64,000 nt of DNA from Spirochaetia bacterium (GCA_965198005.1 CBDAOI010000003.1:1024001-1088000); one strand, 5' to 3'. Positions 21,970 through 60,733 are shown, numbered from the stretch's first letter. Notes: a model not told the origin generated them from the sequence alone. Numbers and translations: made by a program.

Positions 21970-22079
21970 GGGTGCAGTGTACTCTACTCGCGGCCAGGGA
22001 GTCCGCCGCCGGTGGGCGCCCCGGCCGCCGCCTGCGCCTGCCCGTGCCATGTCACCGGCACGCACCCGAAGGAGGTTGC

Positions 22080-22775: not shown

Positions 22776-22779
22776 AACC

Positions 22780-23090
22780 AGACATGATGGCGACCGAGCA
22801 GCGCGCCTATACCGAGATGGACCGCGAGAACATCATGCGGGCGCTGGGCCTCGACCAGCCGCTGCACGTCCAGTACCTGCGCTGGATCGGCGACCTGGTG
22901 CTGCGCGGCGATCTGGGCACCTCCCTGTGGTCGAGCGAAAAGTGTCGGCCGAAATCATGCGCCGGATCCCGGTAACCGTGGAGCTGGTGCTGCTCGCGAC
23001 CATCCTGACCACCCTGGTGGCGATCCCGATCGGGGTGTACTCGGCGATCCGGCAGGATACGCTCGGCGACCATTGCGCGCGGGTCGCCGC
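22780..23090 (+). pseudogene. OppB/DppB internal fragment
   Basis: LGLDQPLHVQYLRW...GDLGTSL...IPVTVEL...GVYSAIRQDT. Confidence 0.8.
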
Positions 23091-23690: not shown

Positions 23691-23993
23691 GGCGTGATCC
23701 GGCTCACCCGGGCCCTGGCCGCGGACAACATCAACGTCAACTGCATCTGCCCCGGGGTGGTGTACGGCGCGACGTGGGAATGGCTGGCGGCAAAGAAGAT
23801 GCAGTACGATCCCGCGACCGCGGGCATGGACCCGAAGGACTACTTCGACCGCTACGTCGGCTCCGCCGGGCCGCTCCAACGCCCGCAGGACCCCGAGGAC
23901 GTGGGCAACGCCGTGGTGTTCCTGGCCTCGGAAGCGGCCCGCAACATCACCGGCCAGGCGCTGAACGTCAACGGCGGCCGGCTCATGCTGTAG
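23691..23993 (+). pseudogene. SDR oxidoreductase C-terminal fragment
   Basis: NINVNCICPG...PEDVGNAVVFLAS...ITGQALNVNGG. Confidence 0.8.
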
Positions 23994-24016
23994 GCACGCC
24001 GGCGAAGTGCGACTGA

Positions 24017-31719: not shown

Positions 31720-32579
31720 TCAGGGCGTCGGGGTAGTACGTCCAGTACGCGCGGCCTCGACCGCGTCCGTCACCTCGGCGCGCTTGGCGCTGCTCTCGGC
31801 TGCGTTGCGGCCGCAGATCTGGCCGCCGTCGATCACGATGTCCTGACCGGTCACGAAGCCGGCGTCGTCGCTCGCCAGGTAGAGCGCGCCCTTGGCGATG
31901 TCGTCGGGGAAGCCCGAGCGGGTCAGGGCGACGCGGCGTTCCAGGACCTCGGCCAGGGCCGCCAGACTGCGCTCGGTGGCCGCGGCATCAAGGCCGCCGC
32001 CCCAGAAGATCGGGGTTGCGATCGCGCCCGGCGAGATGCTGTTGACCCGGATGTTGCACGGGCCCAGCTCCACCGCCGCCACCGGGTGGCCGCCACCACC
32101 GCCGCCTTGGCCGCGCTGTAGAGGATGGACCCGTGGCCGACGCGGTGGGCGGCGACGCTGGCATTGTTGATGATCGAGCCGCCGCCCCCGCGTTTCATGT
32201 GCGGGACGGTGTGCTTGATCGCCAGCAGCACGCTGTTGAACAGCAGCCCCAGCGCCGACCGGATCTGCGCCTCCTCGATTTGGTCGATCGGGGGCACGCG
32301 CTCGCCGGCGCCGGCGTTGTTGAACAGGCAGTCGATGCGCCCGAAGCGCGCCACCGCCGCCTGCGCCAGCGCCTGCAGATCGGCCTCGCGCGCCACGTCG
32401 GTGCGGACGAAGATGGCGCGCTCGCCGAGCCGCTCGGCCAGCGCCTCCCCCTTGGCGCGCGAGCGGGCGGCCATCACCACCGCCGCCCCCTGTTGGATGA
32501 ACACTTCGGAGGTGCGCTCGCCGATGCCGCTGGTGGCGCCGGTGATGATCGCGACCTTGCCCTGCAACCTGCCGCCCAC
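31720..32579 (-). pseudogene. SDR oxidoreductase, 1-nt frameshift near 32085
   Basis: TGATSGIG, NNAG, YSAAK, then IRVNSISPG...VTGQDIVIDGG in another frame. Confidence 0.85.
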
Positions 32580-32775
32580 GGCGCGATTGTGCTGCGAACC
32601 TCGCCACGCGGCAAGCGGGAACGCGGGGGTGGCGGGCGCGGGGATCGGAGCCGCGCGGTATTTGACCGACTTGGCGCCATGCGCATCCGGACGCCCGGCA
32701 CGATGGGCCAGAAACCTCCGTCGCGGCCGCGGACGCGCGTTGACATGAGCTGACTCGTTAGGCATTCTGTATAAC

Positions 32776-33021
32776 ATGAAGTCGTTCAACGTGCGGCACA
32801 TCCAGCATCGGCTCGCCGACGTGCTTGCCGAAGTCGAGGGCGGCGAGGAGATCGAGATCGTGCGTCGCGGCCGTCCGGTGGCGCGGATCGTTCCGTTGCG
32901 GTTGGTCGCGCCGCCGTGCGACTGGAGCCACGCCGCGGGTCGCCTGCGGGAAGCCTACTCCGAGCCTGTCGGCGGCATTGCTGCAGCGGATCTCATTGCC
33001 GATGGGCGCGGCGAACGGTGA
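32776..33021 (+). CDS. Phd/YefM-family antitoxin, probably leaderless
   Basis: LADVLAEVEGGEEIEIVRRGRPVARIVP; TTGACA-17-CATTCT upstream. Confidence 0.85.
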   Translation: MKSFNVRHIQHRLADVLAEVEGGEEIEIVRRGRPVARIVPLRLVAPPCDWSHAAGRLREAYSEPVGGIAAADLIADGRGER

Positions 33022-34779: not shown

Positions 34780-34807
34780 TTGACGTTTTCTCATGAGACC
34801 GTATTAT
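34780..34807 (+). promoter_or_regulatory. Sigma70-type promoter for the fli/flh operon
   Basis: TTGACG-16-TATTAT. Confidence 0.55.
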
Positions 34808-34918
34808 AGAACACTACGTTGCCCGCCCCACGCGGCGGGGACGGGGTCGCTGTTCGTGGGAGCCGCTTTCCCGCCCTGGAAGTTGGCCGAGGCGAACCGC
34901 GAAAACTGGGGGAAATGC

Positions 34919-35914
34919 GTGGACGTTATCAGTCAACGCCGCACGGCGCCGCCGCGGCGCACCGGCGACGCCGGCATCGGTCAGCCGGCTGTCAGGCCGC
35001 TCAGCCTGGGGCGGCCGGAGCACCTGTCGCCCGAACAGATCGCCGGACTGTCGGCGGTGCACGAGGGCTTCGCCCGGCGCGCCGGCGAGGCGCTGTCGGC
35101 GTACCTGCGCAGCCCGGTCCGACTCCACCTGAAGACCGTTCAGCAGCTCTCGTACGAGGAGTGCGCCCGGGCCCTGCCGGATCCCGGCGCCCTGGCCGTG
35201 GTGGAGTTGGAGCCGTTCGCCGGCACGGCGCTGCTGGCGGTCGATCAACCGTTCGCGTTTGCGGCGATAGACCGGCTGCTTGGCGGCCGGGGCGACTCTG
35301 CGGCGCCCGCGCGCGGCCTGAGCGACATCGAGCGCGCGGTAATGGAGAACATCGTGCACCGGCTGATGGCGCCTCTGGCCGCGGCGTGGCAGCCGGTACG
35401 GGCGCTCCGGCCGCGGTTGAGCCGCATCGAAACCGCCCCGGAACAGGCCCGGATCGCCGCGCCGCGGGAGGCCGTGGTGCGGCTGACGTTCGACCTCCGC
35501 CTGCGCGCGGCCGGGACCATGCATTTCCTGATTCCTCTTTCGGCCCTGGCCCCGGTCAGGAGCAGGCTCGGACCACGGTCGTGCGGGCACGCCGAGCGCC
35601 GGGAGGAGCGCGGCGCCGAAGCCGGCGGCCGCGGCGGCGGCCGCGCGCGCTCGCAACGGGCGACGCTCGGTGAGTTGCTGCGGGCGGCGCCGTTGCCGGT
35701 GACCGTGGAGCTCGGGGGCGCCTGCGTACCGTTGCGCGCCATCCTCGAGCTGACGGCGGGCGACGTGCTGCCGCTGGACCGGGTGCGGCCGGGCGACGAG
35801 CTGGCGGTTAAGGTAGGCGGCAGAACGAAGTTCATGGGGCGGCCGGGCGTGGTAGGCGGCCGGCTCGCCGTCCAGATCCGGGCACCGGCGCGGGTCGGGG
35901 GCGGGCCGGAATGA
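34919..35914 (+). CDS. fliM: Flagellar switch protein FliM (divergent)
   Basis: RPEHLSPEQI, HEGFAR, QLSYEE, IDRLLGGRG, IETAP, C-terminal SpoA domain. Confidence 0.9.
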   Translation: MDVISQRRTAPPRRTGDAGIGQPAVRPLSLGRPEHLSPEQIAGLSAVHEGFARRAGEALSAYLRSPVRLHLKTVQQLSYEECARALPDPGALAVVELEPFAGTALLAVDQPFAFAAIDRLLGGRGDSAAPARGLSDIERAVMENIVHRLMAPLAAAWQPVRALRPRLSRIETAPEQARIAAPREAVVRLTFDLRLRAAGTMHFLIPLSALAPVRSRLGPRSCGHAERREERGAEAGGRGGGRARSQRATLGELLRAAPLPVTVELGGACVPLRAILELTAGDVLPLDRVRPGDELAVKVGGRTKFMGRPGVVGGRLAVQIRAPARVGGGPE

Positions 35915-36273
35915 GTGCCGCCGACGTGCAGCCCATGCAGCTTGCCAGCCTGCAGCCGGAGGCCGAAACCGGCCACCACCGGACGCCGGCCGACATCGGG
36001 TTCCTGAAGGACGTGGACCTGCGGATCACGGTGGAGCTCGGCGGCACCACGCGGACGATCGGGGAGATTCTGGGCCTCGGCACCGGGTCGGTGATCGAGC
36101 TCGACAAGCTGGCGGGCGAGCCGGTCGAGATCCTGGTCAACCGCACGCCGATCGCCCGCGGCGAGGTGGTGGTGATCGACGACGCGTATGGCGTGCGGGT
36201 CACGGAGATCATGGCCGGCGTGCGGATGGGCGACGATGGAGCGGGCAACGGCTCCCGCGTCGAGGCGGGCTAG
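35911..36273 (+). CDS. fliN: Flagellar switch protein FliN
   Basis: TVELG...IELDKLAGEPVEILVN...GEVVVID..YGVRVTEI. Confidence 0.93.
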   Translation: MSAADVQPMQLASLQPEAETGHHRTPADIGFLKDVDLRITVELGGTTRTIGEILGLGTGSVIELDKLAGEPVEILVNRTPIARGEVVVIDDAYGVRVTEIMAGVRMGDDGAGNGSRVEAG

Positions 36274-36286
36274 CGGCCTGCGCACC

Positions 36287-37003
36287 GTGGGTCGCCGCAG
36301 GCCGGCACGCGCACCCGCGGCACTGGTACTGCTGCTCATCGGGAGCGCGGTGCTTGGGCTGATCGGTCCGCTCGCCGCCCAGGAGCCGCAGCCGTCCACG
36401 CCGGAGCCGGCGGCGGGCGCCGCCGATCCCGCGCGCGACCTGACCCCGCTGCCCGGAACCGGGGAGTCGGCCGCGCTGGCGGTTGCACGCGCTCCCGCCG
36501 GCGGCGCGGCCCCGTCCACCTGGGACTTCGTGCGCATGGTGCTGGTGCTGGCCGCGGTGCTGGCCGCCATCTATCTGGTTTTCCTGTTGGTCAAGCGCAG
36601 CACGTCGGGACGGGTGCGGGAGAACGACCTGATCACCCTGGTCGGCTCGCGCACGCTCGGCGGCGGGCGCCACCTGCACTTGGTGCGGGTGGGTACGTCC
36701 TACTACCTGGTGGGGGCGGCGGACGAGTCGGTCAACCTGATTGCCGAGATTACCGACGGTGAGAGCCTCGACACGCTGAAGCTCGAGCTGTCCACGGCAA
36801 CGGTCGCGGGGCGGCGCAGTTTTGCGGACGTGCTCGGCGAGGCGTTCGGCGGCATCGGCGCGGGCGGCAGCCGGGGCCACGGTCACGGCGTCCTGCTTTC
36901 CGGCGGCGAGGCCGCCGCCGGAAGCGTGCTCGGCCAGCGGCGCCGCGGGGTCCAGAACGTGCACCGTCGACCCGGGCGGGGAGGGGCCGATGCCGGCAGT
37001 TGA
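36287..37003 (+). CDS. fliO: Flagellar biosynthesis protein FliO (start uncertain)
   Basis: DFVRMVLVLAAV TM segment, LHLVRVG..YYLVG, synteny. Confidence 0.8.
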   Translation: MGRRRPARAPAALVLLLIGSAVLGLIGPLAAQEPQPSTPEPAAGAADPARDLTPLPGTGESAALAVARAPAGGAAPSTWDFVRMVLVLAAVLAAIYLVFLLVKRSTSGRVRENDLITLVGSRTLGGGRHLHLVRVGTSYYLVGAADESVNLIAEITDGESLDTLKLELSTATVAGRRSFADVLGEAFGGIGAGGSRGHGHGVLLSGGEAAAGSVLGQRRRGVQNVHRRPGRGGADAGS

Positions 37004-37793
37004 CCGCCGCTGGTGCGCCGGCGGCCTGCTCGCGCTGCTGGTGCTGGGCCAGCTCCTGGCACCGGCCCCGGCGGCCGCCCAGGAGCTGGTGGACGCGCTC
37101 GCCGACGGTGTGGGGTTTCCGTTCGTCGATCTGTCGGTGCGCGACGCCCAGTCGAACCGGGAAGTGCTGCTGTCGCTGCAGTTCCTGCTGCTGCTGGCGG
37201 TGGTGTCGCTGGCGCCTTCCCTGATCGTCCTGATGACCTCGTTCGTGCGGCTGGCGATCGTATTCGACTTGGTCAAGCGGGCCTTGTCGCTGCAGCACGT
37301 GCCGCCGCACCAGGTGCTGATGGGCATCGCCCTGTTTCTCACCCTGTTCATCATGTGGCCCACGCTCGACACGGTGAACCGCACCGCGCTGCAGCCGTTC
37401 GCGCGCGGCGAACTGAACACCGAACAGCTCCTGCAGCGGGCCGAGACGCCGGTGCGGGAGTTCATGTTTCGCCAGCTCGGGGACGACGCCGACAACATCC
37501 GTCTGTTCATGCGCATGCGCGACCTGCCGAAGCCGGCCACGCGCGCCGACGTGCCCACCTACATCCTGATCCCCGCCTTCATCCTGCACGAGCTGACGGT
37601 GGCCTTCAAGATCGGGATTCTGATCTTCGTGCCGTTCGTGATCATCGACCTGGTGGTGGCCACGGCACTGATTTCGATGGGCATCATCGTGCTCCCGCCG
37701 ATGCTGATCTCGCTGCCGTTCAAGCTGATCCTGTTCGTGCTGGTGGACGGCTGGGACCTGATCACGATGCAGGTGATCGCGAGCTTTCGCTGA
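36990..37793 (+). CDS. fliP: Export gate protein FliP
   Basis: SLAPS...MTSFVR, PPHQVL, LIPAFILHEL, PFVIIDLVV, LPFKLILFVLVDGW. Confidence 0.95.
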   Translation: MPAVDRRWCAGGLLALLVLGQLLAPAPAAAQELVDALADGVGFPFVDLSVRDAQSNREVLLSLQFLLLLAVVSLAPSLIVLMTSFVRLAIVFDLVKRALSLQHVPPHQVLMGIALFLTLFIMWPTLDTVNRTALQPFARGELNTEQLLQRAETPVREFMFRQLGDDADNIRLFMRMRDLPKPATRADVPTYILIPAFILHELTVAFKIGILIFVPFVIIDLVVATALISMGIIVLPPMLISLPFKLILFVLVDGWDLITMQVIASFR

Positions 37794-38074
37794 TGGACGG
37801 GGCCATGACAATGGGCGCGGCGGTGACTCTGGCGCGCGACGGCGTGCTGCAGTTGCTGATGATCGCGGGACCGATCCTCGGGGTGAGCGTGATCGTCGGC
37901 CTGGTGATCTCGATTCTCCAGGCGACCACCTCGATTCAGGAGCAGACGCTCACCTTCGTCCCCAAGATCCTCGCCCTGCTCGGCGTGGTATTCCTGCTCG
38001 CGCCCTGGCTCGGCGGTTCGATGGTGGAGTTTACTCGCCGCCTGTACGCGGCGATTCCGGGGATGGCGCTGTGA
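37793..38074 (+). CDS. fliQ: Export gate protein FliQ
   Basis: VGLVISILQATTSIQEQTLTFVPK. Confidence 0.95.
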   Translation: MDGAMTMGAAVTLARDGVLQLLMIAGPILGVSVIVGLVISILQATTSIQEQTLTFVPKILALLGVVFLLAPWLGGSMVEFTRRLYAAIPGMAL

Positions 38075-38916
38075 CCGCGGGCGGACTGCTGGACGGGCTG
38101 GTGACGCTCGACGACTGGTACGTGGGCCTGCTGGTATTTGCCCGGGTGCTCGCCATGATCCAGGTGGCGCCGCTGTTCTCGTCGTCCGCCGTCCCCCAGA
38201 TCGCCAAGTTCGGTCTGGCGCTGTTCCTTACGGTGATTCTGCTGCCGTGGGTGCTGGAGCGCGGCTATCCGGTGCCCGCGTCCGGCGTGCAGTATGCACT
38301 GCTGCTGCTCGGTGAGGCGCTGGTGGGCCTGCTGATCGGGTTTCTGATCTACCTGGCGGTCGCGGCGTTTCAGGTGGCGGGGCAGTTCCTTTCGCTGCAG
38401 CTCGGGTTCGACTCGGCCGAGGTGTTCGACCCGTTCAGCCGCAGCTCGCTGCCGTCGCTCGGCCAGTTGTTCCACCTGCTCGCGCTGCTGGTGTTCCTGA
38501 GCGTCGGCGGGGTGCACCGGTTCATGCTGACCGGCCTGCTCGGTTCGTTCCAGGCGCTGCGTGCCGGCGATCTGGCCGCGCCGGCGCTGCTGGGCACGCT
38601 GTCGCGCGGTCTGGGCACCCTGTTCGCGACCGCGTTCGCCATCGCGTTTCCGGTGTTCGGCGCGCTGGCGCTGGTGTCGGTCGCCCTGGCGCTGTTGGCC
38701 AAGGCGGCGCCGCAGATGAACCTGCTCATTCTGGGCGTGCCGATCGCGACGGCCGCCGGGCTGGTGATCCTGGTGCTGGCGCTGCCGGTGCTGCTGGAGG
38801 CGGTGGCGGCGGTCATCGACGGAGCGTTCGTGGAGTTGCGCCAACTGCTCGCGCGGCTGGCCGCCGAGCCCCGGCCGGCGCTGGATTCGGCCGCGGTCAG
38901 GGGAGGAGCGCTGTGA
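38071..38916 (+). CDS. fliR: Export gate protein FliR
   Basis: FARV...APLFS, AGQFLSLQLGF, KAAPQMNL. Confidence 0.92.
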   Translation: MTAGGLLDGLVTLDDWYVGLLVFARVLAMIQVAPLFSSSAVPQIAKFGLALFLTVILLPWVLERGYPVPASGVQYALLLLGEALVGLLIGFLIYLAVAAFQVAGQFLSLQLGFDSAEVFDPFSRSSLPSLGQLFHLLALLVFLSVGGVHRFMLTGLLGSFQALRAGDLAAPALLGTLSRGLGTLFATAFAIAFPVFGALALVSVALALLAKAAPQMNLLILGVPIATAAGLVILVLALPVLLEAVAAVIDGAFVELRQLLARLAAEPRPALDSAAVRGGAL

Positions 38917-39992
38917 GCGGCTGGTCCGGCGCGGAACACGAGGGGCGTACCGAGGCCCCCAGCGCCGCCCGACTGCGGGCTGCCCGCAGCGCGGGAGTGG
39001 TGCCGCGCACCACCGAGCTGCCGGCGGCGATGACGCTGGTGGGCGCGGTCGCGGCCCTGGCGGTGCTGGGACGTTCGGCGGTGGCCACGGTGAGGGAGAT
39101 GCTGCGCGTGTTCTTGATGCAGGCTGCCACGCCCGAGGTGGCGGCCACGCCGGCGAGCGCCGAGCTGGCATTCTCCTACCTGCTCCGTCTGGTGCTGCCC
39201 GTGGCCGGGATCGGCTTGGTGGCCGCGCTGGCCGGGAATCTGGTGCAGGTCCGGCCGCGGCTCGCGGTCAGACCGGTTGCGCCCGATTGGCACCGGATCG
39301 TTCCCCGGTTCCTCAGTTACTTCAGGCGTGCGCTGTTTTCCGCCGAGGCGGCCTACCGGCTGGCCGCCACCGCGCTCAAGGTGCTGGTCATCGCGGCGCT
39401 CGCGGGCGCGACCATTCACGCCGTGCTCGAGCGGCTGGCCGGTAGCGTGCGGATGCCGCTCGAAGCCGCCGGCGCACTGTTAGCGGCGGCGGCGCTGCGC
39501 ATGGCCGGCAGCGTGGCGCTGCTGCTGCTGGCCCTGGCGATTGCCGACTATCTGGTGCAGCGCCGGCGCCACCGCCGGGCACTGCGGATGACCCCGCGCG
39601 AGGTGCGCGAGGAGCGCCGCCGGCAGGAGCCCGATCCCCAGGTGCGCCGCCGGCTGCGCGCCCGCATGCGCGAGTTGCTGTCGCGCGACCTGGCGCGGCA
39701 GGTGGCGGGTGCGGCGGCGGTCATCACCGGCGGCGCGCGCTGGGCGGTGGCGGTGCGCTGGACCGGGCACGCCCTGGCGGCGCCGGTGGTGGTGGCCAAG
39801 GGGCTGGACGAGGCCGCCGGCAGGATCCGCGCGGCCGCCGCCGCCCACCCGGTGCCGCTGGTGGAGCGCCCGCAGTTGGCGCGGGTGCTGGCCGAGTACG
39901 TCGAGGTCGGCGACCCGGTCCCCGCCGCGTACTTCCGGCCGCTGGCGGAGGCACTGGCGCGGACCGCACCGGGGGAGGTGCCGGATGGCTGA
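38913..39992 (+). CDS. flhB: FlhB, lacking the NPTH autocleavage motif
   Basis: RTEAPS...L..AR..G, LRMT..EV.EE...EPDP, VITGGARWAVA, APVVVAKG, LAR.L. Confidence 0.9.
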   Translation: MSGWSGAEHEGRTEAPSAARLRAARSAGVVPRTTELPAAMTLVGAVAALAVLGRSAVATVREMLRVFLMQAATPEVAATPASAELAFSYLLRLVLPVAGIGLVAALAGNLVQVRPRLAVRPVAPDWHRIVPRFLSYFRRALFSAEAAYRLAATALKVLVIAALAGATIHAVLERLAGSVRMPLEAAGALLAAAALRMAGSVALLLLALAIADYLVQRRRHRRALRMTPREVREERRRQEPDPQVRRRLRARMRELLSRDLARQVAGAAAVITGGARWAVAVRWTGHALAAPVVVAKGLDEAAGRIRAAAAAHPVPLVERPQLARVLAEYVEVGDPVPAAYFRPLAEALARTAPGEVPDG

Positions 39993-41997
39993 CGCAAAGA
40001 CCGCCGGCCCGTACGCCTTCAGCGGCTGGCAGCGGCGCAGCGACGTGCTGGTGGCCCTGTTCGTGATCGTGTTCATCCTGATGATGTTGATTCCGCTGCC
40101 GGCAGTGGTGCTCGACCTGTTCATGGCGCTCAACATCTGTCTCGGCCTGCTGGTCATTCTGATCGTGCTCTACACCCGGAGTCCGTTGGAGTTCACCATC
40201 TTTCCGACGCTGCTGCTGCTGGCCACGGTGTTCGGGCTGGCTCTCAACGTCTCGTCGACGCGGCTGATTCTGGCACAGGGCGCGGCCTTCGAGGGTCGCA
40301 TCGTGCGCGCGTTCGGAAGCTTCGTCGTGGGCGCTCCGGGTACCGCCGGCTACGTCATCGGCGCGATCATCTTCACCATGATCATGGCCGTGCAGTTCGT
40401 GGTCATCACCAAGGGCGCCACGCGGGTAGCCGAGGTGGCGGCCCGCTTCACCCTGGACGCCCTTCCCGGCAAGCAGATGGCGATCGACGCGGAGTACAAC
40501 TCCGGCCTGCTGTCGGAAGCGGAAGCGACGCGGCGCAAGAACGAGCTGCGGCGCGAGACCGACTTCTACGGCGCCATGGACGGCGCCTCGAAGTTCGTGT
40601 CCGGGAACGTGCGCGTCGGGGTTCTGATCACGCTGATCAACCTGGTCGGCGGGCTGATCGTGGGCGTCGCGGTGCGCTCCGAGCCCCTGGCCGCGGCGGC
40701 GGGAACCTACGTGTCGCTGACCATCGGCGACGGCCTGGTAACGCAGCTCCCGGCGCTGCTGATTTCCACCGCCACCGGGATCATCGTGACGCGCGCCGTC
40801 TCCGATGCCTCGTTCGGCCGCGACCTGGCGCGCCAGCTTGCGCTGCACCATCGGCCGTTCTACATCGCCGCGGGTTTCCTCGCGGTGCTTGCCCTGCTGC
40901 CCGGCTTTCCCGTGCACGTGTTGCTGCCGCTGGCCGCGGTGCTCGGCTGGTGCGGCCATGCCATCGGCCGCCGGCAGGCGGGCGCCGCCGGCGCCGAACC
41001 ACCAGCCGCCACCGAGCCGGGCCCTGCCGCGCGGGCGGCGTCGCCGCCAGCCGCCGCCGCGCCGGTGGCCCCCGTGTCACCGGTGGCGCCGCCCGATCCG
41101 CTGGCGGTCGAGTTGGGGTATGGACTGGTGCCGCTGGCCGAGGAGGAGGGCGGTACCGACCTGTTGCAGCGGCTGGCCGCCGTGCGCCGCGCCGCGGCGC
41201 AGGAACGCGGCCTGGTGGTGCCGCCGGTTCGGATTGCCGACAACCTGAACCTGCGGCCCACCGAGTATGCCGTCAAGATCCGCGGCGTCGAGGTGGAGCG
41301 CGACCGCCTGCGCGGCGGCGCGCAGGAGCTGGCTGCCCGCCTGACACGGATCATCGAGCGGCGCGCGGCCGACCTGCTCGGTCGAGAAGACGTGAAGTCG
41401 ATGCTCGAGGCGCTCCGGGGGGACTATCCGACCGTGGTCGAAGAAGCCACGGCGACGCTGTCGGTCGGCGAGATTCAGCGCGTGCTGCAGGCGCTGTTGG
41501 CAGAGGGGGTGTCGATACGCGATCTGGTGGCTATTCTCGAGGCGCTCGGCGACTACGCGCCCGAACGGCGGGACACCGGGTTTCTGGTGGAACGGGTGCG
41601 CCGGACACTGGCGCGGCAGATTTCGCAGCAGCACGCGGGCACGGACGGGGTACTGCACGTCCTGACGCTGGCGCCGGACCTGGAACGGCGGGTGATCGAA
41701 GCCGCCGCGGAGGGCGCCGACGAAGGTCCGAACGGCGGTGCGGCGGCCGGCGGCCGCTCGGCGGAGTGGCGGCGGCACTGGGTCGGCGCCCTGGCGGAGG
41801 CGGTCGCGGAGGCCGAGCGGCGGGGGCACCCGCCGGTGGTGTTGTGCCCCGCGCCGGCACGGGCGTGGGTGCGGGCCGCCACCCGGCGCGAGCTCCCGCA
41901 CCTGGTGTGCCTGGCGGACACCGAGCTGGCCGAGGTCGCCGTGACAGCGCTGGCGGAAGTGCAGCCGGAGCGGCCGGCGGGAGAGGGCGGGCGGTGA
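39985..41997 (+). CDS. flhA: FlhA, lacking cytoplasmic subdomain D2
   Basis: FPTLLL, RVAEVAARFTLDALPGKQMAIDA, FYGAMDGASKFV, TIGDGLV, ELGYGL, VLQALL.EGVSIRDL. Confidence 0.95.
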   Translation: MADAKTAGPYAFSGWQRRSDVLVALFVIVFILMMLIPLPAVVLDLFMALNICLGLLVILIVLYTRSPLEFTIFPTLLLLATVFGLALNVSSTRLILAQGAAFEGRIVRAFGSFVVGAPGTAGYVIGAIIFTMIMAVQFVVITKGATRVAEVAARFTLDALPGKQMAIDAEYNSGLLSEAEATRRKNELRRETDFYGAMDGASKFVSGNVRVGVLITLINLVGGLIVGVAVRSEPLAAAAGTYVSLTIGDGLVTQLPALLISTATGIIVTRAVSDASFGRDLARQLALHHRPFYIAAGFLAVLALLPGFPVHVLLPLAAVLGWCGHAIGRRQAGAAGAEPPAATEPGPAARAASPPAAAAPVAPVSPVAPPDPLAVELGYGLVPLAEEEGGTDLLQRLAAVRRAAAQERGLVVPPVRIADNLNLRPTEYAVKIRGVEVERDRLRGGAQELAARLTRIIERRAADLLGREDVKSMLEALRGDYPTVVEEATATLSVGEIQRVLQALLAEGVSIRDLVAILEALGDYAPERRDTGFLVERVRRTLARQISQQHAGTDGVLHVLTLAPDLERRVIEAAAEGADEGPNGGAAAGGRSAEWRRHWVGALAEAVAEAERRGHPPVVLCPAPARAWVRAATRRELPHLVCLADTELAEVAVTALAEVQPERPAGEGGR

Positions 41998-43295
41998 CCA
42001 CCGCGTACTTCAAGGTGCAGGGCACGACCCCGCGTGAGGCGCTCGCCAACATGAAGCGGCTGTATGGACCGGACGCCCGCATACACTCTCACCGCGTGGT
42101 CAAGATCGGAGGACTGTTCGGCCTGTTCAAGCGCGACGGAGTAGAGATTACCGGGTTCGTGGATCCGCCGGCGGCGTACGCCGCGGCGACCGCGTCGGAA
42201 CCGGCCCCGGCCGACGCGGAGCCGGCCGCGGCCCAGCAGCGGTTGGCGTACGAGCAGCGCCGGATCCTGGAGCAGACGCCCTCCGGGGCCGGTCTGCGGC
42301 GGCTGGTAGACGAGGTGGCGGCACTGCGCGCCCGGCTCGACCGCTCGTTGCCGGAGACCGCCGAGGTGACCGTACGGCTCGGTGAGCATCCGTGTCTGCT
42401 CGCATTGGACGCACTGCTGGTGCGCAACGACTTCGCCCCCGGCTACCGCGCGCGGCTGCTCGATCGGGTACGGTCGGAGTTCACCCTGCAGCAGCTTGAG
42501 GACCGGGCCGCCGTGCACCGCTACGTGGCCCTGCAGATCGGCCGTGCGCTGTCGGTGGCGCAACCCTTGACCGGGACCGACGACACCGCCGCCGGCGGGC
42601 CGCTGGTGTGCATCGTGGTCGGTCCGACCGGCGTCGGCAAGACCACCACAATCGCCAAGCTGGCGGCGATCCACGGCCTCGGCAACGGCGCCGGCGAACG
42701 CCGGAACGTGCACATCGTGACGATCGACAACTATCGCATCGGCGCCCGCCAGCAGATCGAGACCTACGGCGAGATCATGCGCATTCCGGTCACCACGGCC
42801 GAAACCGCGGAGGATCTCAAGAAGGCGGTGGCGCTCGGGCGCGACCTGGACCTCATCTTCGTCGACACGGTCGGCCGCAGTCCGGCCGACTACGCCCGCC
42901 TAGGCGAAATGCGCGCCGTGCTGGAGGCAGCCGGCCGGCGCAGCACGACCCAGCTTGCCGTGAGCGCCACCACCAAGCATCCGGACCTCGAGCAGATCCT
43001 GCGCCAGTTCGAGCCGTTCGGATACGACACCGTGATCGTCACCAAGCTCGACGAGACCGCCGCCATCGGCAACGTGCTGTCCGTGCTGGCGGAGCGCCGC
43101 AAGCCGGTCTCCTACCTGTGCGACGGGCAGGTGGTGCCGCAGGACATCGCACGGGCATCGATCGGACGGTTGCTGGTCAGCCTGGAGGGGTTCGAGCTCG
43201 AGCGTGCGGCGCTGGAGCGTGAGTTCGGGACCTTCGGGGAGGCGCCGGCGCCGTCCGCCGGGAAAGAGCGGATGCCGATCTTGACCTCGCCGTGA
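41994..43295 (+). CDS. flhF: SRP-family GTPase FlhF
   Basis: GPTGVGKTTTIAKLA, DNYRIGA, DTVGRS, TKLDET, GQVVPQDI. Confidence 0.93.
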   Translation: MTTAYFKVQGTTPREALANMKRLYGPDARIHSHRVVKIGGLFGLFKRDGVEITGFVDPPAAYAAATASEPAPADAEPAAAQQRLAYEQRRILEQTPSGAGLRRLVDEVAALRARLDRSLPETAEVTVRLGEHPCLLALDALLVRNDFAPGYRARLLDRVRSEFTLQQLEDRAAVHRYVALQIGRALSVAQPLTGTDDTAAGGPLVCIVVGPTGVGKTTTIAKLAAIHGLGNGAGERRNVHIVTIDNYRIGARQQIETYGEIMRIPVTTAETAEDLKKAVALGRDLDLIFVDTVGRSPADYARLGEMRAVLEAAGRRSTTQLAVSATTKHPDLEQILRQFEPFGYDTVIVTKLDETAAIGNVLSVLAERRKPVSYLCDGQVVPQDIARASIGRLLVSLEGFELERAALEREFGTFGEAPAPSAGKERMPILTSP

Positions 43296-43343
43296 TTTAT
43301 ACCTACGCTCTCGGAAATTGGGTTGTGTCCGTGGGGCGATGCT

Positions 43344-44168
43344 ATGGCGCGTGACAGCCGGGAGCTAGGCGTGGCAGATCCGGTCCCGGAGGCCGCTGAC
43401 GCCGTTCCGGAAGAAGAGCTGTGGAGGCGCTACCGGCAGCGCCGGGATCCCAAGATACGCGACCACTTCATCCGCCAGTACGCGCCGTTGGTCAAGTACG
43501 TGGCCGGCAAGATGGCGGTGGGCATGCCCGGCAACGTGGAGTTCGACGACTTGGTGGGCTACGGCGTGTTCGGGCTGTTCGACGCCATCAAGAAGTTCGA
43601 TCCGACCAAGCACGTCAAGTTCAAGACCTACGCCGTGACGCGGATTCGCGGAGCGATCTTCGACGAGTTGCGCACCATCGACTGGGTGCCGCGCTCGGTG
43701 CGCCAGAAGGCGCGCGAGGTCGAGGAAGCCGTGCGCACCCTGGAAGCGAAGCTCGGACGCGCCGCCACCGACGCCGAGATCGCCAAGAAGATGAACATGC
43801 CCCCGGACGAGTTCCAGCAGCTCATGCTCAAGATCAGCGGCACCTCGATCCTGTCGCTCAGCGACGTGTGGTACAGCGGTGACGACAATGACCGCATCTC
43901 GGTGGCGGAGAGTATCGAGTCTCCGACCAGCCTCAATCCCGATTCGATCGTGGAGAAGGATGAGATCAAGCGGGTGATCGTCGAGGCAATCGGCGAACTG
44001 TCGGAGAAGGAGCAGAAGGTGCTGGTGCTCTACTATTACGAGGATCTCACGCTGAAGGAGATCGGTGAAGTGCTGGAAGTCACCGAGTCGAGAGTCTCCC
44101 AACTCCACACCAAGGCGATCATCCGACTGCGCGCCAAGCTGACCAATCTGAAACGTGGTGTCGCCTGA
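43344..44168 (+). CDS. fliA: RNA polymerase sigma-28 factor (FliA/WhiG)
   Basis: [56 protein letters not shown]. Confidence 0.95.
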
Positions 44169-44255
44169 GCCCGTCTAGCCGAGGCGGGGCGTGCGGCGGC
44201 CGCGCATTCCCCGGCCGGGCGGTAATGCGCAGGGACGGAATGGTCGATATGCAGA

Positions 44256-45581
44256 GTGATGCATTATTCCCGGTACCGCACCCTGGAACGGCAGCAGGTA
44301 GTGCCCCGCAACGGGCACAGCCGATTCGCGCGCGCAGCGCCCCGTGCGCTCCGTAACCAGCAGCCGAGCACGCGCCGCCCGTCCGCCCGCCGGACCCCGA
44401 CTGCGTCCCGCTCCCCGGTCGCACTGCTCGGCGCGACGGCGCGGTCCATGGCCCGCGGCCGGAGCAGCGTGCGCGAGCTGGTGCGCAAGGTCCACGCCGC
44501 CGCGGCCGCACTGTTGTCCCGCATGGTAATCCGGCCGATGCATGCCACCGCCACGGTGCTGCTGGTGGTGGCTGCCCTGACCGCAACCACTCTGGCCCAG
44601 ATCGCCCCCAGCGAGCCCAGCCCACGGCTGTCGCCGCAGGTGTTGACGGACGGACTGGCGACCCCGGCGACGGTGCACTTGGCCGCGGCAGTCCCGGGCA
44701 CGGGCGCAGCGCCGGGTTCGGTCGTGGCATCGTCGGCCGGCGCAGCGACCGGAATCGCTACCGTGGCGACCGCCGGCGCCGCGTTGCCTGCCGAGCCGGC
44801 GAACGCGGCGAACCCGGCGAACCCGGCGGTGTCGACCGCCGCCCAGGGCCTCCCGCCAATCCAGCGGGTTCACCCGCACCAGGTGGTGAGCGGCGATACG
44901 CTGTCGGGGCTGGCGGCGCGGTTCGGGATTACGCTCGATACGATCATCAGTTTCAATGACATCAAGCGTGCCCGCGACCTGCGCGTGGGACGCGAGCTGA
45001 CCATCCCCGCCGCATCGGGAGTGCGCTACGAGGTGCGCCGGGGTGACAGTCTGAGCGGCATCGCGGTGCGCCACGGCGTGGATCTCAGCACCGTGCTCGC
45101 GGCCAATGCGGTGCAGGGCGAGTTGATCACGCCGGGGCAGGTCCTGATGATCCCCGGCGGCCGCCTGGGTGAGAACGAGCTCAACCGCGTGCTCGGACGG
45201 CTGTTCGTGTGGCCGGCCCGCGGGCGACTGACCTCCGGCTACGGTTACCGCAACGATCCGTTCACCGGAATCCGCAAGTTTCACAACGGCATCGACATCG
45301 CCAACGCCCAGGACACCGCGGTGGTAACGGCGATGGGTGGCAGCGTGGCGATGCTGGGTTACAACGGAAACTACGGGCGCTACCTGATCATCCGCCATCA
45401 GGATGGCTTCCAGACTCTGTACGCGCATCTGCACAAGATAGTCGTGGAACGCGGCCAACGGGTGCGTCAGGGACAGCGCGTCGGTTCGATGGGGACCACG
45501 GGATACAGCACCGCCAGTCATCTGCATTTTTCCATCTTCCAGCATGGCCGCCACGTCAATCCGGTGAAGCATCTCGACTGA
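44256..45581 (+). CDS. LysM + M23 peptidase
   Basis: Two LysM repeats (GDTLS/GDSLS), HNGID, HLH. Confidence 0.9.
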   Translation: MMHYSRYRTLERQQVVPRNGHSRFARAAPRALRNQQPSTRRPSARRTPTASRSPVALLGATARSMARGRSSVRELVRKVHAAAAALLSRMVIRPMHATATVLLVVAALTATTLAQIAPSEPSPRLSPQVLTDGLATPATVHLAAAVPGTGAAPGSVVASSAGAATGIATVATAGAALPAEPANAANPANPAVSTAAQGLPPIQRVHPHQVVSGDTLSGLAARFGITLDTIISFNDIKRARDLRVGRELTIPAASGVRYEVRRGDSLSGIAVRHGVDLSTVLAANAVQGELITPGQVLMIPGGRLGENELNRVLGRLFVWPARGRLTSGYGYRNDPFTGIRKFHNGIDIANAQDTAVVTAMGGSVAMLGYNGNYGRYLIIRHQDGFQTLYAHLHKIVVERGQRVRQGQRVGSMGTTGYSTASHLHFSIFQHGRHVNPVKHLD

Positions 45582-45610
45582 GTAAGCCGCACCCCGCGAA
45601 CGTATCTTCC

Positions 45611-45638
45611 CCCATTCTGCACAATTGTGCAGAATGGG
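45611..45638. repeat. Perfect 28-bp palindrome
   Basis: cccattctgcacaattgtgcagaatggg. Confidence 0.9.
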
Positions 45639-45650
45639 TGGCGGATCGGA

Positions 45651-46655
45651 ATGAGGACTGACGCAAGGCAGCGCCGGCGCGGCCGCGGGAGGCGGTGGCT
45701 GGCGATTCTGGCCGCCGGTTGCGTGGCCGCACTGGTCGTTCAGGCTACCGTGATCGGGCCCACGCGCACGGCGCCGTACGATGAAGGGGAGTACCTGTTG
45801 TTCCCGGGCGATTGGCTGGCCACGACCCGGAACGCCTACCCGCAGGTCGGGGCCGGGGGATTTGCCGCGAGCGCGCACGGGGTCGGCGGCAGCGCCGAGG
45901 GAATCGACCCGCCACCGTTGTCGCTCGCCAGCAAGTACTACCGGGTGCGGCGCGGCGACACCTTTACCGGCATCGCTGCCCGGTTCGGGTTGACCCTGGA
46001 CACGATCGCCTCGTTTAACCGGGACGCCGGGGTCGGGGTGCATCAGCTCGCCATCGGCGAGTTGGTCAAGATTCCGAACCAGGATGGGATCTACCTGCCG
46101 GTAGGCGACGATCTGGCGCAACTCAGCCTGGAACAGGGAGTGTTGCCGGAGACGGTGCTGGTAGCCAACGGCGTCGATCTCGACGAGTTGACGCCGGCCA
46201 CGGAATTGTTCTTTCCCGGCGTCCAGCACTCCGGGCACGAGCTGGCCATGGTGACCGGGGCCGCATTCACGCGTCCGACCGCCGGCTGGGTGAGTTCCCG
46301 GTTCGGTCCGCGGATCGACCCGTTCACCGGCACCCGGAGTTTCCACCACGGGGTCGACCTTGCGGCGCCGCATGGGACCGCGGTGCGCGCCACCCAGGAT
46401 GGCAAGGTAGCCGCCACCGGCCACAGCCGGGTGTTGGGCAAGTACATCATCATCACCCACTACGTGGCCGGGTACTCCTCACTGTACGGCCACCTGCATC
46501 GGGTCTACGTGCGCCGCTCCGAACGGGTGCGCGGCGGTGAGCCGATCGGCACCGTCGGCGCTACCGGGCAGGTGACCGGTCCCCACCTGCACTTCGAACT
46601 ACGGCGCGGCAAGATCCGGCTCGACCCCGCGCAGTTCATCTCCGGTCTCCGCTGA
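45651..46655 (+). CDS. LysM + M23 peptidase
   Basis: YRVRRGDT, HHGVD, YGHL, GPHLHFE. Confidence 0.9.
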   Translation: MRTDARQRRRGRGRRWLAILAAGCVAALVVQATVIGPTRTAPYDEGEYLLFPGDWLATTRNAYPQVGAGGFAASAHGVGGSAEGIDPPPLSLASKYYRVRRGDTFTGIAARFGLTLDTIASFNRDAGVGVHQLAIGELVKIPNQDGIYLPVGDDLAQLSLEQGVLPETVLVANGVDLDELTPATELFFPGVQHSGHELAMVTGAAFTRPTAGWVSSRFGPRIDPFTGTRSFHHGVDLAAPHGTAVRATQDGKVAATGHSRVLGKYIIITHYVAGYSSLYGHLHRVYVRRSERVRGGEPIGTVGATGQVTGPHLHFELRRGKIRLDPAQFISGLR

Positions 46656-52930: not shown

Positions 52931-54967
52931 TCAGCGGCCGGCTGCCGCCGCGGCAGCCTGGGATCGTTTGATCACGTCATCGGCGAGACGTCCGGTCACC
53001 GGCGCGTATTCGGCGAACTCGACCTCGAACGACCCCGTACCCGAGGTCATCGACTTGAGATCGATGGCGTAGCGCAACAGTTCCGCCTGCGGCACCAGCG
53101 CCTTGACCTCGAGCATGCCGCCGCCGATCGGTTCCTGGCCCTGAATGCGTCCGCGCCGCCCGCTCAGGTCCGACAGCACGTCGCCCAGATAATGCTCTTC
53201 GACCGAGACCGTAAGGTTGGAAATCGGCTCCAGCAGCACCGGCCGGGCCTTGCCCAGCGCGTCGCGCAGCGCCCCGCGCGCCGCCAGCGAGAAGGCCAGC
53301 TCGGACGAGTCGACCGAGTGCTCCCTGCCGTCCACCAGCGTCACCTCGATTCCCATCACCGGGTACCCGGCCAGCACGCCGCTGGTCATTCCTTCGCGGA
53401 GCCCTTTCTCGACTCCGGGAATGTAGCCGCGTGAGATGGCGCCGCCGAAGATCTGGTTGACGAACTGGAACTCTTCGCCGCCCCGTGGCACCGGCTTGAC
53501 CTTGATCTCGACCTTGGCGTATTGGCCGTGGCCGCCGGTCTGTTTCTTGTGCTGATACTCGGCCGCCGCCGATCCCGCGATCGTCTCGCGGTAGCCGACC
53601 CGCGGGACCTTGGTCTCGACCTCGATCTTGGCGGCGCGCTTGATCTTGTCCAGCACCACGGTGAGCTGGAGTTCGCCCATGCAGGACGCCACGTTCTCGC
53701 GCGTCTCTCCGTTGTAGGCGACCTTGAAGGTCGGATCTTCCTCCCCGGCGCGGGCCAGGAACTGGCCGAGCTTGTCGTCGTCCTTCTTGGAAGCCGCCGC
53801 CACCGTGACCGCGTGCACCGGCTGCGGCAGATCCAGCGGAGGATAACTGACGTCCGACCCCTGGGCCAGAGTGTCTCCCGTGGCGGCGGTCGACAGCTTG
53901 GTGAGGACGCCGACGTCGCCGGTTGCCAGGGCGGGGGTCTCCGTCAGTTTGCCCCCTTGCAGCAGGTACACCTTCGAAATCCGTTCCTTCTTGCGGTCAC
54001 GCTGGTTGGTCAACTCGGTGTCCGGCTTGAGCGTGCCCTGCATCATCCTGATCCACGACAGCTTGCCCGAGTACTGGTCGAGGCTGGTCTTGAACACGAA
54101 CGCCTCCGGACCGTCCGCGGCGTCGGCGGCGGACGCGTCCGGGGCCGGCGCCGCGAGCTGTACCAGGTCGAGCACGCTGGTGACGCCGGCGCCGGCGGTC
54201 ACGGCGCCCGCTACCACCGGCACCACCGCCCCGGACCGCAGGGCAATGGCGAGACCGGTGCGGATCTCTTCGTCGCTCAGGGTTTCCTCATCGAGGTATT
54301 TCTCCATCAGCACGTCGTCGCCCTCGGCGGCTCCCTCGATGAGATCCTGGCGGTACTGCTCCACCTCGTCGGCCAGCTCGGACGGCACGTCGGCCGCGGC
54401 TTCCCGTCCGTCGTCCTGCACCAGCGCCGTGCCGCGGAGCAGGTCCACCACCCCGGAGAACCCCGCGCCGGCCCCGATCGGAACGGCCACCGGGACGAAG
54501 GTGCCGGGCAGTTTCGCGCGCAGATCGGCGAGCGTGTCGGCGAAGCTGGCGTGCTCCTTGTCCATCTGATTGACGAACACGATCCGCGGCTTGGCCGCGG
54601 CCTCGAGGCGGCGCCACAGCTTGGCGGTCTCGATCTGGACGCCCACGTCGGCGCCGACCGTCACGATCGCGGTTTCGGCCACGTGCAGCGCCGCCACCGC
54701 CTCCCCGATGAAGTCGGCCGAGCCGGGGGTGTCGAGCAGGTTGACCTTGGCGCCATTCCACTCGAGGTGCCCGAGGGCGGTGTGAATCGAGATCCCGCGC
54801 GCTATCTCTTCCTCGGTGCGGTCGCTGACCGACTTGCCGGCGTCCACCGGCGCGAACTTGGGCACCTCGCCGCCGCGCACCAGCGCCAGTTCCATGAGCG
54901 ATGTCTTTCCCGTGCCGCCGTGACCGATGATCGCGACGTTGCGGATGTCGGAAGAAGCGATGCTCAT
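52931..54967 (-). CDS. fusA: Elongation factor G-like protein (EF-G II type)
   Basis: GHGGTGKT, RGISI, DTPG, NQMD, MGELQL, KKQTGGHGQY, HSVDSS. Confidence 0.9.
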   Translation of the reverse strand: MSIASSDIRNVAIIGHGGTGKTSLMELALVRGGEVPKFAPVDAGKSVSDRTEEEIARGISIHTALGHLEWNGAKVNLLDTPGSADFIGEAVAALHVAETAIVTVGADVGVQIETAKLWRRLEAAAKPRIVFVNQMDKEHASFADTLADLRAKLPGTFVPVAVPIGAGAGFSGVVDLLRGTALVQDDGREAAADVPSELADEVEQYRQDLIEGAAEGDDVLMEKYLDEETLSDEEIRTGLAIALRSGAVVPVVAGAVTAGAGVTSVLDLVQLAAPAPDASAADAADGPEAFVFKTSLDQYSGKLSWIRMMQGTLKPDTELTNQRDRKKERISKVYLLQGGKLTETPALATGDVGVLTKLSTAATGDTLAQGSDVSYPPLDLPQPVHAVTVAAASKKDDDKLGQFLARAGEEDPTFKVAYNGETRENVASCMGELQLTVVLDKIKRAAKIEVETKVPRVGYRETIAGSAAAEYQHKKQTGGHGQYAKVEIKVKPVPRGGEEFQFVNQIFGGAISRGYIPGVEKGLREGMTSGVLAGYPVMGIEVTLVDGREHSVDSSELAFSLAARGALRDALGKARPVLLEPISNLTVSVEEHYLGDVLSDLSGRRGRIQGQEPIGGGMLEVKALVPQAELLRYAIDLKSMTSGTGSFEVEFAEYAPVTGRLADDVIKRSQAAAAAAGR

Positions 54968-55215
54968 GGCTGTGATCTCCTTGCAGGCACGTTCGGGGTG
55001 CGCGGCGCGTCGCTCGGGGCGGGGCGACCGGCGCACCGACTCCACATCGTAGACCGGCGCGAACGGCTTGTCAACCGACCGGATCGAACTGGCCATGCCT
55101 GACGAAACCGCACACGACGGGGAGTCGCCTTCGATCATCCAACGGTTACCGAGTCCGCTACACCACGTCGTACATGCGCTGTCCTCCGTGCTGGCCCATC
55201 GGTCTGACGGCCGCC

Positions 55216-55249
55216 TTGCATCCTTCCTGATTTTGCATGACAATGTCAT
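55216..55249 (+). promoter_or_regulatory. TA promoter with palindromic operator
   Basis: TTGCAT-17-GACAAT; atgaca-a-tgtcat at 55237-55249. Confidence 0.6.
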
Positions 55250-60724: not shown

Positions 60725-60733
60725 GGGACCCGG

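Follow-up and report, generated by a model that had tools for sequence, protein, structure and literature searches.

The export-gate protein FlhA of a Spirochaetia bacterium (GCA_965198005.1, here G000) lacks subdomain D2 of its cytoplasmic domain. We analysed a stretch of 64,000 nucleotides of this genome (CBDAOI010000003.1:1024001-1088000, hereafter the window), in which flhA occupies 39985..41997 on the plus strand and encodes, by translation, a FHIPEP-family protein of 670 amino acids. In canonical FlhA, D2 and the adjoining D1 helix form a hydrophobic dimple, at which the chaperones FliS, FlgN and FliT dock with filament-type substrates after the gate has been switched by FliK and cleaved FlhB. 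D2 of FlhA and the cleavage site of FlhB are central to the sorting of early and late cargo, and they have been studied mostly through engineered point mutants. In the genus of G000, D2 is gone together with the late-export and switching apparatus; what remains is a residual core and not a flagellum with an odd FlhA. The loss of D2 is probably one step in the dismantling of the late-export switch in an export core that is reduced but still under purifying selection, and whose flagellar clients are gone.

Results

Loss of subdomain D2 from FlhA

A Pfam search of the four contigs of G000 found a single FHIPEP gene, flhA, whose product scores 691.7 bits against a cut-off of 29.1 (PF00771). The match falls into two stretches, profile positions 2-403 and 455-654, and skips 404-454. 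When the protein was compared with solved FlhA chains by phmmer (E 4e-171), the alignment was also broken in two: residues 26-428 and 487-679 of 36hw_A2 (692 amino acids) correspond to query residues 25-438 and 448-650, and residues 2-436 (459 bits) and 488-694 of 12dv_B (697 amino acids) to query residues 2-445 and 449-660. Residues G368-I372, L413, P415 and A416 of 36hw_A2 are those that PMC9431611 names in Salmonella FlhA. Salmonella positions 429-486 (58 residues) are replaced by a turn of nine residues, a net loss of 49. The N-terminal membrane domain is conserved, and its cytoplasmic loop around VITKGATRVAEVAARF.LDALPGKQMAID is near-identical to that of 12dv_B.

The junction (residues 439-447) lies at 41299..41325 on the plus strand. 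Residues 432-459 read IRGVEVERDRLRGG followed directly by AQELAARLTRII, and the reading frame is open throughout. A passage of PMC5916509 assigns residues 362-434 and 484-503 of Salmonella FlhA-C to D1, 435-483 (49 residues) to D2, 504-583 to D3 and 584-682 to D4. Since the exchange of 58 residues for nine matches this boundary, the gap corresponds to D2 in both place and length, and the cytoplasmic domain retains D1, D3 and D4, three of the four subdomains. A preliminary description of this DNA had reported an in-frame loss of about 50 residues matching D2 at 41281-41345. The junction text that it quoted is indeed present, its coordinates cover residues 433-454, and the boundaries of the loss coincide to the residue with Salmonella 435-483. 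The canonical block said to be missing, LAINPG..DPAFGL..WI..GYTVVD, is carried by each of the nine FlhAs aligned from the order's other families.

We compared cytoplasmic domains in an alignment of 88 rows (A1), which comprises the G000 domain, 70 of 119 listed database hits and 17 of the 19 loci of relatives. The database rows were picked by hand (short or close-looking ones and a spread of others), some of them duplicate loci, and two truncated FlhAs of relatives are left out. The anchor-to-anchor spacing across the site is 58 residues in 65/65 D2-bearing FlhAs and 9-15 residues in 23/23 D2-less rows. By their source names, the D2-bearing rows include spirochaete, Bacillota and Thermoleophilia records; the nearest named database hits are titled 'Spirochaetaceae bacterium' and 'Spirochaeta sp.'.

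The gap might in principle reflect an error of assembly, a pseudogene with a frameshift or a wrongly called gene, as the assembly is in four contigs and 90% complete and several genes within the window are split. However, an identical junction is present in an independent DNA run from a separate study (X3), in which a contig of 5193 bases covers window positions 40110-45302 with seven base differences and with no indel listed inside FlhA downstream of 39802. The same gap is found in the genomes of nine other species and in 15 database proteins, and the flhA frame is open from end to end. An artefact is practically out of the question.

The dimple and the remaining cytoplasmic domain

Passages of PMC5916509 describe Asp456 and Phe459 in D2, with Thr490 in D1, as the dimple that binds Tyr122 of FlgN, and a passage of PMC13639345 also gives this role to Thr490. 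In G000 the equivalents of Asp456 and Phe459 fall in the deleted stretch, as the preliminary description had proposed for the Asp/Phe chaperone-binding residues, and the Thr490 column is Ala. Its reading of the downstream ATH motif as AAR likewise holds: T is present in 98% and H in 100% of the 65 D2-bearing rows, and the D2-less rows have G or A, and R. The opposite wall of the dimple, a D1 helix on the Salmonella T490 side (residues 451-455, 41335..41349, plus strand), is no longer conserved. Four of its columns (T, H, L and E) are at least 97% conserved in the D2-bearing FlhAs, and none of the four is kept in the 23 D2-less rows.

Over the whole cytoplasmic domain, conservation in the D2-bearing rows reaches 90% or more in 66 columns, of which the D2-less rows keep 43. 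By our own division of these columns among the subdomains, made from the A1 columns and the phmmer offset, the first part of D1 keeps 16 of 23, the helix after D2 0 of 4, D3 21 of 25 and D4 6 of 14, five of the changed D4 columns lying in a gappy stretch. The GYXLI-type motif (as GYGLV) and the equivalent of Arg391 are retained.

Residues 362-670 were modelled by AlphaFold2 with A1 as input. The D2-less domain gave a mean predicted local distance difference test score (pLDDT) of 90.6 and a predicted template modelling score of 0.87, and the two ten-residue blocks at the junction (model residues 71-90) had mean pLDDT values of 96 and 93. The top Foldseek matches of the model are FlhA-C structures, with 3mix first (E 7.8e-27), followed by 6ch1, 6ch2, 3a5i and 7amy; the template modelling score against 3mix, 6ch1, 3a5i and 7amy is 0.81-0.85 (query-normalised) at a root-mean-square deviation of about 3 Å. 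Every solved SctV or FlhA C-domain matched by the model bears D2 or its counterpart SD2. The predicted fold is undisrupted, in that D1, D3 and D4 are modelled confidently and superpose on solved FlhA-C.

Distribution among relatives

Thirty-one genomes were searched: those of the own genus (g1, including G000), those of the sister genus (g2) and 12 from seven other families of the order. FlhA was found in 25 of them, namely G000, 9 of the 10 other g1 genomes, 3 of the 8 g2 genomes and all 12 genomes from other families. The breakpoint, for which a check of relatives had been proposed, is common to all 10 g1 FlhAs; the one g2 FlhA that was aligned (G011) has a degenerate D2. Across the whole family (24 genomes), all 10 FHIPEP matches in g1 skip profile positions of about 403-455, and in g2 FHIPEP is full length (2-656) in 3 of 13 genomes and was not found in the other 10. 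In a maximum likelihood tree, the 10 D2-less FlhAs lie on one side of a branch with support 100/99, and G000 branches first among them. The simplest reading is that the deletion would have had a single origin.

The FlhAs of two congeners, G009 (locus L015) and G010 (L013), end right after the second D1 helix, without D3 and D4. Their membrane domain is still 67-69% identical to that of G000, and in the FlhA tree they are nested beside G003 and G004. Another genome grouped in g1, G002 (81% complete, 510 contigs), gave matches to flagellin, FliS and rod/hook proteins, as the only member of the family to do so, and none to FlhA, FliF or the sigma factor described below. Either the bin is wrong or this genome is a flagellated member.

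In a sample of 301 genomes spread evenly over the phylum, FHIPEP was found in 300, and 285 of these, as read from the table of matches, have a single high-scoring match. No other D2-less FlhA was seen in this sample, in which 10 of the 14 low-scoring cases were inspected and none skipped 403-455. D2 loss was considered as the cause of other split FHIPEP matches in the phylum and was rejected, the 10 inspected being contig or frame breaks. A search of genome contigs for FlhA returned one irrelevant locus at 32% identity.

Flagellar genes retained and lost in G000

G000 (4 contigs, 4.89 Mb) keeps FliF, FliG, FliM, FliN, FliOPQR, FlhB, FlhA, FlhF, sigma-28 and FlgM. For comparison we used the operon of the flagellated relative G026, which runs flgB-flgC-fliE-fliF-fliG-fliH-fliI-fliJ-x-fliK-flgD-flgE-flbD-motA-motB-fliL-fliM-fliN/Y-fliO-P-Q-R-flhB-flhA-flhF-flhG-x-fliA-fapA...cheW. 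Thirty-one proteins of this operon were searched by tblastn against the whole G000 genome, the FlhB query being discounted (FlhB was found by Pfam). The search gave 11 clear orthologues, two weak paralogues only (FliI and FlhG) and 17 queries with no match. The orthologues are FliF (40% identity), FliG (62%), FliM (37%), the C-terminal part of FliN (57%), FliO (45%), FliP (67%), FliQ (62%), FliR (45%), FlhA (51%), FlhF (45%) and FliA (81%). No tblastn match in G000 was obtained for FlgB, FlgC, FliE, FliH, FliJ, FliK, FlgD, FlgE, FlbD, MotA, MotB, FliL, FapA, CheW and three unnamed proteins, although in a genome that is 90% complete single absences are no proof.

Family searches agree with this inventory. 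FliS, Flagellin_N and the rod/hook C-domain (Flg_bbr_C) were each found in 13 of the 31 genomes, the 12 from other families and G002, and none of them in G000. FliI exceeded the cut-off in 12 of the 31, all from other families; G000 reached 215.7 against 379.5 bits, like the non-flagellated controls. Searches for FlgN, FliD_C and FliW gave no match in G000. FliF is present in 25 of the 31 genomes, which are exactly the holders of FlhA, and FliG_C in 23 (all g1, no g2). By gene content, this lineage appears no longer to build a flagellum.

The gene cluster in the window

Genes in the window (G+C 66.8%) were found by scanning all open reading frames (ORFs) of at least 150 amino acids with Pfam. 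The cluster lies on the plus strand and begins with fliM at 34793..35914 (start codon uncertain; FliM 1e-45, FliMN_C 4.8e-20) and fliN at 35911..36273 (120 amino acids, FliMN_C 2.1e-24). The latter encodes the FliN C-domain only: the FliN of the relative has 370 amino acids with CheX and FliMN_C, tblastn covers its residues 267-368 only, and the CheX-like part is absent in G000. These are followed by fliO (36188..37003, start uncertain; FliO 8.7e-12), fliP (36822..37793, start uncertain; FliP 1e-69), fliQ (37793..38074, the C-terminal part of ORF 37013-38074; Bac_export_3 3.2e-26), fliR (38071..38916; Bac_export_1 5.7e-57) and flhB (38913..39992, 359 amino acids; PF01312, E 9.7e-78). Downstream of flhA are flhF (41994..43295, GTG start, 433 amino acids; SRP54 4.1e-35), which encodes a GTPase of the signal recognition particle type, and a sigma-28-like factor with Sigma70 regions r2, r3 and r4 (43323..44168, the start probably lying further in). 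FlhF is the GTPase of polar placement. Start and stop codons overlap along fliQ-fliR-flhB-flhA-flhF, the ATG of flhA overlapping the flhB stop and its own stop the GTG of flhF, and the order fliPQR-flhB-flhA-flhF is as expected. Two genes with LysM and M23 peptidase domains (44256..46655, by Pfam) adjoin the cluster and stand in the same order in G007 and G011; secA follows them, and an unrelated gene on the opposite strand lies upstream of fliM.

In the closed genome G007, fliF adjoins fliM. In G000 a lone fliF lies 85 kb upstream, and a lone, complete three-domain fliG lies on another contig. Upstream of this fliG is a tandem array of units of about 633 bp, each with an ORF of about 99 amino acids that has no Pfam match (L042:226-4290, equal to G000:C4:1460226-1464290). 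The cluster of G011 (L037, g2) reads fliF-fliO-P-Q-R-flhB-flhA-sigma, without fliM/N and flhF; its FlhB is the membrane part only (261 amino acids, profile 3-239 of 335), and its FlhA, with the degenerate D2, is full length and has a long branch in the tree (0.78). Common to both genera are FliF, FliOPQR, the membrane part of FlhB and FlhA. This shared set suggests that the unit on which selection acts is the membrane core.

Elsewhere in the window, split or partial genes at 31723-32801, 15658-16593, 23123-24016 and 21716-22975 are either pseudogenes or assembly indel errors; they comprise a short-chain dehydrogenase spread over two frames that overlap, two halves of solute-binding proteins and the C-terminal part only of UxuA. 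An IS21-type IstB ATPase gene (1856-2662, minus strand) is a sign of a mobile element near the rearranged cluster. A nucleotidyltransferase and HEPN pair (12888-13897, plus strand) resembles a toxin-antitoxin module. Two EF-G-like genes lie within 6 kb of each other on the minus strand (52931-55249 and 58667-60733), with Schlafen AlbA_2 and HATPase_c_4 ORFs between them (57022-58144).

The FlhB cleavage site and the FlhA linker

The nine FlhBs aligned from the order's other families all have the NPTH motif. In g1 it is replaced in 10/10 FlhBs, the G000 protein having TGGAR in its place. According to a passage of PMC13639345, the switch requires cleavage at NPTH, and the P270A mutation leads to polyhooks with the gate locked in the hook-type state. 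Cleavage was lost by engineering in these Salmonella flhB mutants, whereas the g1 FlhBs are naturally devoid of NPTH and the change is fixed throughout the genus. The Salmonella P270A strain also still has a hook protein to export; none was found in G000.

A second degenerate part is the linker of FlhA, which binds FliJ and the neighbouring subunit. In G000 it spans about residues 329-371 (40969..41097, plus strand), is rich in Pro, Ala and Gly, and has a degenerate end motif. In all nine flagellated relatives the linker is charged, 48-50 amino acids long and ends in a conserved motif; in 11 FlhAs of the family (f1) it measures 44-79 amino acids with a combined Pro, Ala and Gly share of 0.47-0.71.

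Selection on FlhA

The ratio of nonsynonymous to synonymous substitution rates (omega) was estimated for four close g1 pairs and two pairs of flagellated relatives by the pairwise Nei-Gojobori method, which gives rough values, with synonymous divergence near saturation in the more distant pairs. For the transmembrane (TM) domain, omega is 0.07-0.12 in g1 and 0.11-0.13 in the flagellated relatives. The corresponding values are 0.21-0.35 and 0-0.03 for the first part of D1, and 0.22-0.29 and 0.08-0.13 for the remaining D1 with D3 and D4. Constraint on the membrane part is no weaker than in flagellated relatives; on the cytoplasmic part it is relaxed by about 2- to 10-fold without being lost. For the D1 remnant of the truncated FlhAs, the pair G009/G010 gives an omega of 0.64. 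In 10 species, with FlhAs of 60-93% pairwise identity, the ORFs of the gate are unbroken. Since the TM domain is as constrained as in flagellated relatives, the core probably still works at a non-flagellar task.

The preliminary description had seen in an excision that spares D1, D3 and D4 the effect of selection to keep the folded ring. D3 is said in a passage of PMC13639345 to make the ring core. The omega of 0.22-0.29 and the conserved columns of D3 speak for this proposal; the relaxation of the cytoplasmic domain and the loss of D3 and D4 in G009 and G010 speak against it. Because two congeners have lost D3-D4 too, retention of the ring is only partly supported.

These data also bear on the view that the cluster is a slowly eroding, functionless remnant and the D2 deletion one of several harmless lesions. 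FlhA has been lost altogether in 10 of the 13 sister-genus genomes and is truncated in G009 and G010; G011 retains the membrane part of FlhB and is without FliM/N, FliG and FlhF; omega of the cytoplasmic domain is raised, and the FlhA linker is degenerate. In G000 the cluster is broken up, and the window contains other split genes and an insertion sequence. All of this would be expected of neutral decay. On the other hand, the omega of the TM domain is not above that of flagellated relatives, and no gate gene is broken in any of 10 species, among which FlhA differs by up to 40%. The excision preserves the frame and follows the domain boundary, 21 of the 25 D3 core columns are kept, and FliF and FlhA co-occur without exception in the 31 genomes. 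Neutral decay is therefore rather unlikely.

Sigma-28, FlgM and hints of transcription

FlgM is a secreted substrate of the flagellum's type III secretion system (fT3SS) in Salmonella, and it binds FlhA-C in Helicobacter. G000 encodes a FlgM homologue (34.3 bits in Pfam against a cut-off of 25) in an ORF of 94 amino acids (L050:3086-3370, minus strand, equal to G000:C3:180086-180370), and further homologues are present in 8 of the 9 other g1 genomes tested (47-54% identity) and in the gate-less G013. The sigma-28-like factor is kept in 30 of the 31 genomes at 70-81% identity, with or without a gate, and it probably has a non-flagellar regulon.

One reading is that the gate persists because it exports or sequesters FlgM, an anti-sigma factor, and would in this way control such a regulon. 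Besides the retention of FlgM in the genus and the conservation of the sigma factor across the order, a passage of PMC2883586, according to which FlhA and FlhF of Helicobacter modulate fliA-dependent transcription, is in line with this idea. However, sigma-28 is present in all eight sampled g2 genomes, five of which are gate-less, and a scan of the whole G000 genome for sigma-28-type promoters gave 13 sites against 8.8 in shuffles, that is, no signal. As both FlgM and sigma-28 persist in gate-less genomes, the pair is not tied to the gate. FlgM retention was for this reason rejected as the explanation of the gate, and a regulatory remnant of this kind is very unlikely.

Three RNA-library runs labelled 'sponge metagenome' yielded contigs of 150-418 bases, listed with 0 or 1 base differences from the cluster, at a depth of 2.5-4 that may include carry-over of DNA. 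They lie within fliM, fliP, fliR, flhB/flhA, flhA, flhF, the sigma-factor gene and the genes of the two peptidases. In each run, 10 to 15 of the cluster's 30 bins had no cover. The runs are a weak hint of transcription of the cluster and of a sponge habitat. A literature search on sponge spirochaetes without flagella returned nothing relevant.

Discussion

We identified a natural FlhA without D2 and found that the deletion is shared by the FlhAs of a whole genus, in which the adjoining wall of the dimple and the cleavage site of FlhB have gone as well. The interpretation given in the preliminary description stands in its structural part: the excision is domain-bounded, the binding residues are lost and the predicted fold is kept. 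Its functional part calls for a different reading. FlhA here is not part of a working flagellum, and neither the clients nor the chaperones were found in G000. The deletion is better read as the loss of a useless docking site than as an odd change in a working flagellum.

The events may be pictured as follows. The clients (flagellins, FlgK/L and FliD) would have been lost first; the chaperones FliS and FlgN, FliK and FliH/I/J were likewise not found. With nothing left to dock, D2 would then have become dispensable. As an insertion rooted in D1 by two loops, it would have been excised once and in frame in the stem of g1, leaving D1, D3 and D4 foldable. The core that is left consists of FliF (the MS ring), FliG, FliM and a short FliN (the C ring), FliOPQR, FlhB and FlhA (the gate), FlhF, sigma-28 and FlgM. 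Any export through it would have neither a switch nor an ATPase and would be driven by the proton motive force, and as there is no rod the channel would open into the periplasm. We infer that client loss preceded the loss of D2, and that the core is active and has a task. This order is the simplest one because both genera are without clients and only g1 is without D2.

Several observations weigh against this picture. The sister genus lost the same clients and kept a degenerate D2, so client loss does not force the excision. The whole system is dispensable in close kin and may be decaying slowly, as FHIPEP was not found in 10 of the 13 g2 genomes. Within g1 itself, two congeners have lost D3-D4 as well, and the cytoplasmic domain, the first part of D1 in particular, is relaxed by omegas that are rough estimates. 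G002, if a true member of g1, makes the order of events less clear. It is also to be considered that single absences in a 90% complete genome are weak and that RNA libraries may carry DNA. Nevertheless, the dismantling of the late-export switch in a core that is still selected probably accounts for the loss of D2.

It is also conceivable that D2 and FlhB cleavage were removed for a new, chaperone-independent clientele or for a membrane platform, the excision then being a gain. Candidate tasks are the periplasmic export of non-flagellar proteins and a nanotube or vesicle platform as proposed for the Bacillus 'CORE'. Precedents are described in passages of the literature: Lysobacter enzymogenes OH11 secretes non-flagellar proteins via its remaining fT3SS genes (PMC7688988), FliOPQR-FlhB-FlhA have been put forward as a nanotube platform, and CORE genes persist in some bacteria without most flagellar genes (PMC6456723; preprint 10.64898/2026.07.27.740770). 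The set shared by both genera, FliF, FliOPQR, the FlhB membrane part and FlhA, and the strong purifying selection on the TM domain would fit such a re-tooling. However, no candidate cargo was found, and no new gene joins the cluster in the two genomes annotated. A new docking role for the part that remains is made less likely by the relaxation of the cytoplasmic domain and by the loss of that domain in G009 and G010, and sequence data cannot tell a useful excision from a tolerated one. We consider an adaptive gain rather unlikely.

Comparison with known systems places the present case among residual flagellar export cores. The canonical FlhA-C of Salmonella (3a5i/6ch1), Bacillus (3mix) and Vibrio (7amy) belongs to the same FHIPEP family, with the same operon place flhB-flhA-flhF, but has D2 with Asp456, Phe459 and Thr490 and an intact linker, whereas here D2 is absent, Thr490 is replaced by Ala and the linker is degenerate. 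Lysobacter enzymogenes OH11, as described in PMC7688988 (see also PMC7277350), likewise has no flagellin and keeps FlhA, FlhB and FliPQR; its residual genes are expressed and needed for non-flagellar secretion and twitching. Unlike G000, in which neither FliI nor FlgD was found, it keeps FliI and some hook-basal-body genes such as FlgD. The same paper also names Buchnera as a residual-core case. The 'CORE-only' genomes of Myxococci, Chloracidobacterium thermophilum and Succinatimonas that are mentioned in PMC6456723 retain FliOPQR-FlhB-FlhA, as is the case here. G011 has nearly the CORE set plus FliF, and g1 has in addition the C ring, FliG and FlhF. The nanotube role is a proposal that comes from a single model organism.

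The nearest structural parallel is SD2 of SctV, an equivalent insertion in SD1. Passages of a preprint (bioRxiv 10.1101/2020.11.20.391094) describe it as poorly conserved, hyper-flexible, rooted in SD1 by flexible loops and forming a major chaperone-binding site at the periphery of the ring, with motions that leave the pore unchanged. Such a subdomain fits an excisable module, but here both the operon context and the best matches mark the gene as flagellar. Our full-text literature search did not turn up any natural FlhA or SctV described as D2-less, and a search of an actinobacterial paper on 'degenerative evolution' (PMC10746217) by chosen terms brought up no passage on retained partial sets. 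Residual export cores are thus already known; a natural D2-less FlhA appears to be new, as no report of one was found.

In a more speculative vein, the genes may encode a working inner-membrane machine, ATPase-less and switch-less, of host-associated spirochaetes that possibly live in sponges. We regard this as a tentative and somewhat unlikely possibility. Such a machine might serve non-flagellar export to the periplasm or remodelling of the polar membrane, and the loss of D2 and of FlhB cleavage might then mark a new clientele; this, too, is a guess that we put forward with low confidence. If it were true, type III apparatuses would come in a third functional kind, next to the flagellum and the injectisome.

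A whole genus is naturally without D2, the adjoining dimple wall and NPTH, while its membrane gate, MS ring and C ring are under purifying selection. It offers an experiment of nature that can separate the parts of FlhA-C required for folding from those required for whatever role the gate has without clients, with a graded series from the full-length proteins of g2 through the D2-less proteins of g1 to the D1-only proteins of G009 and G010. It also provides a new and phylogenetically distant case for the question of what residual export cores do in non-flagellated bacteria.

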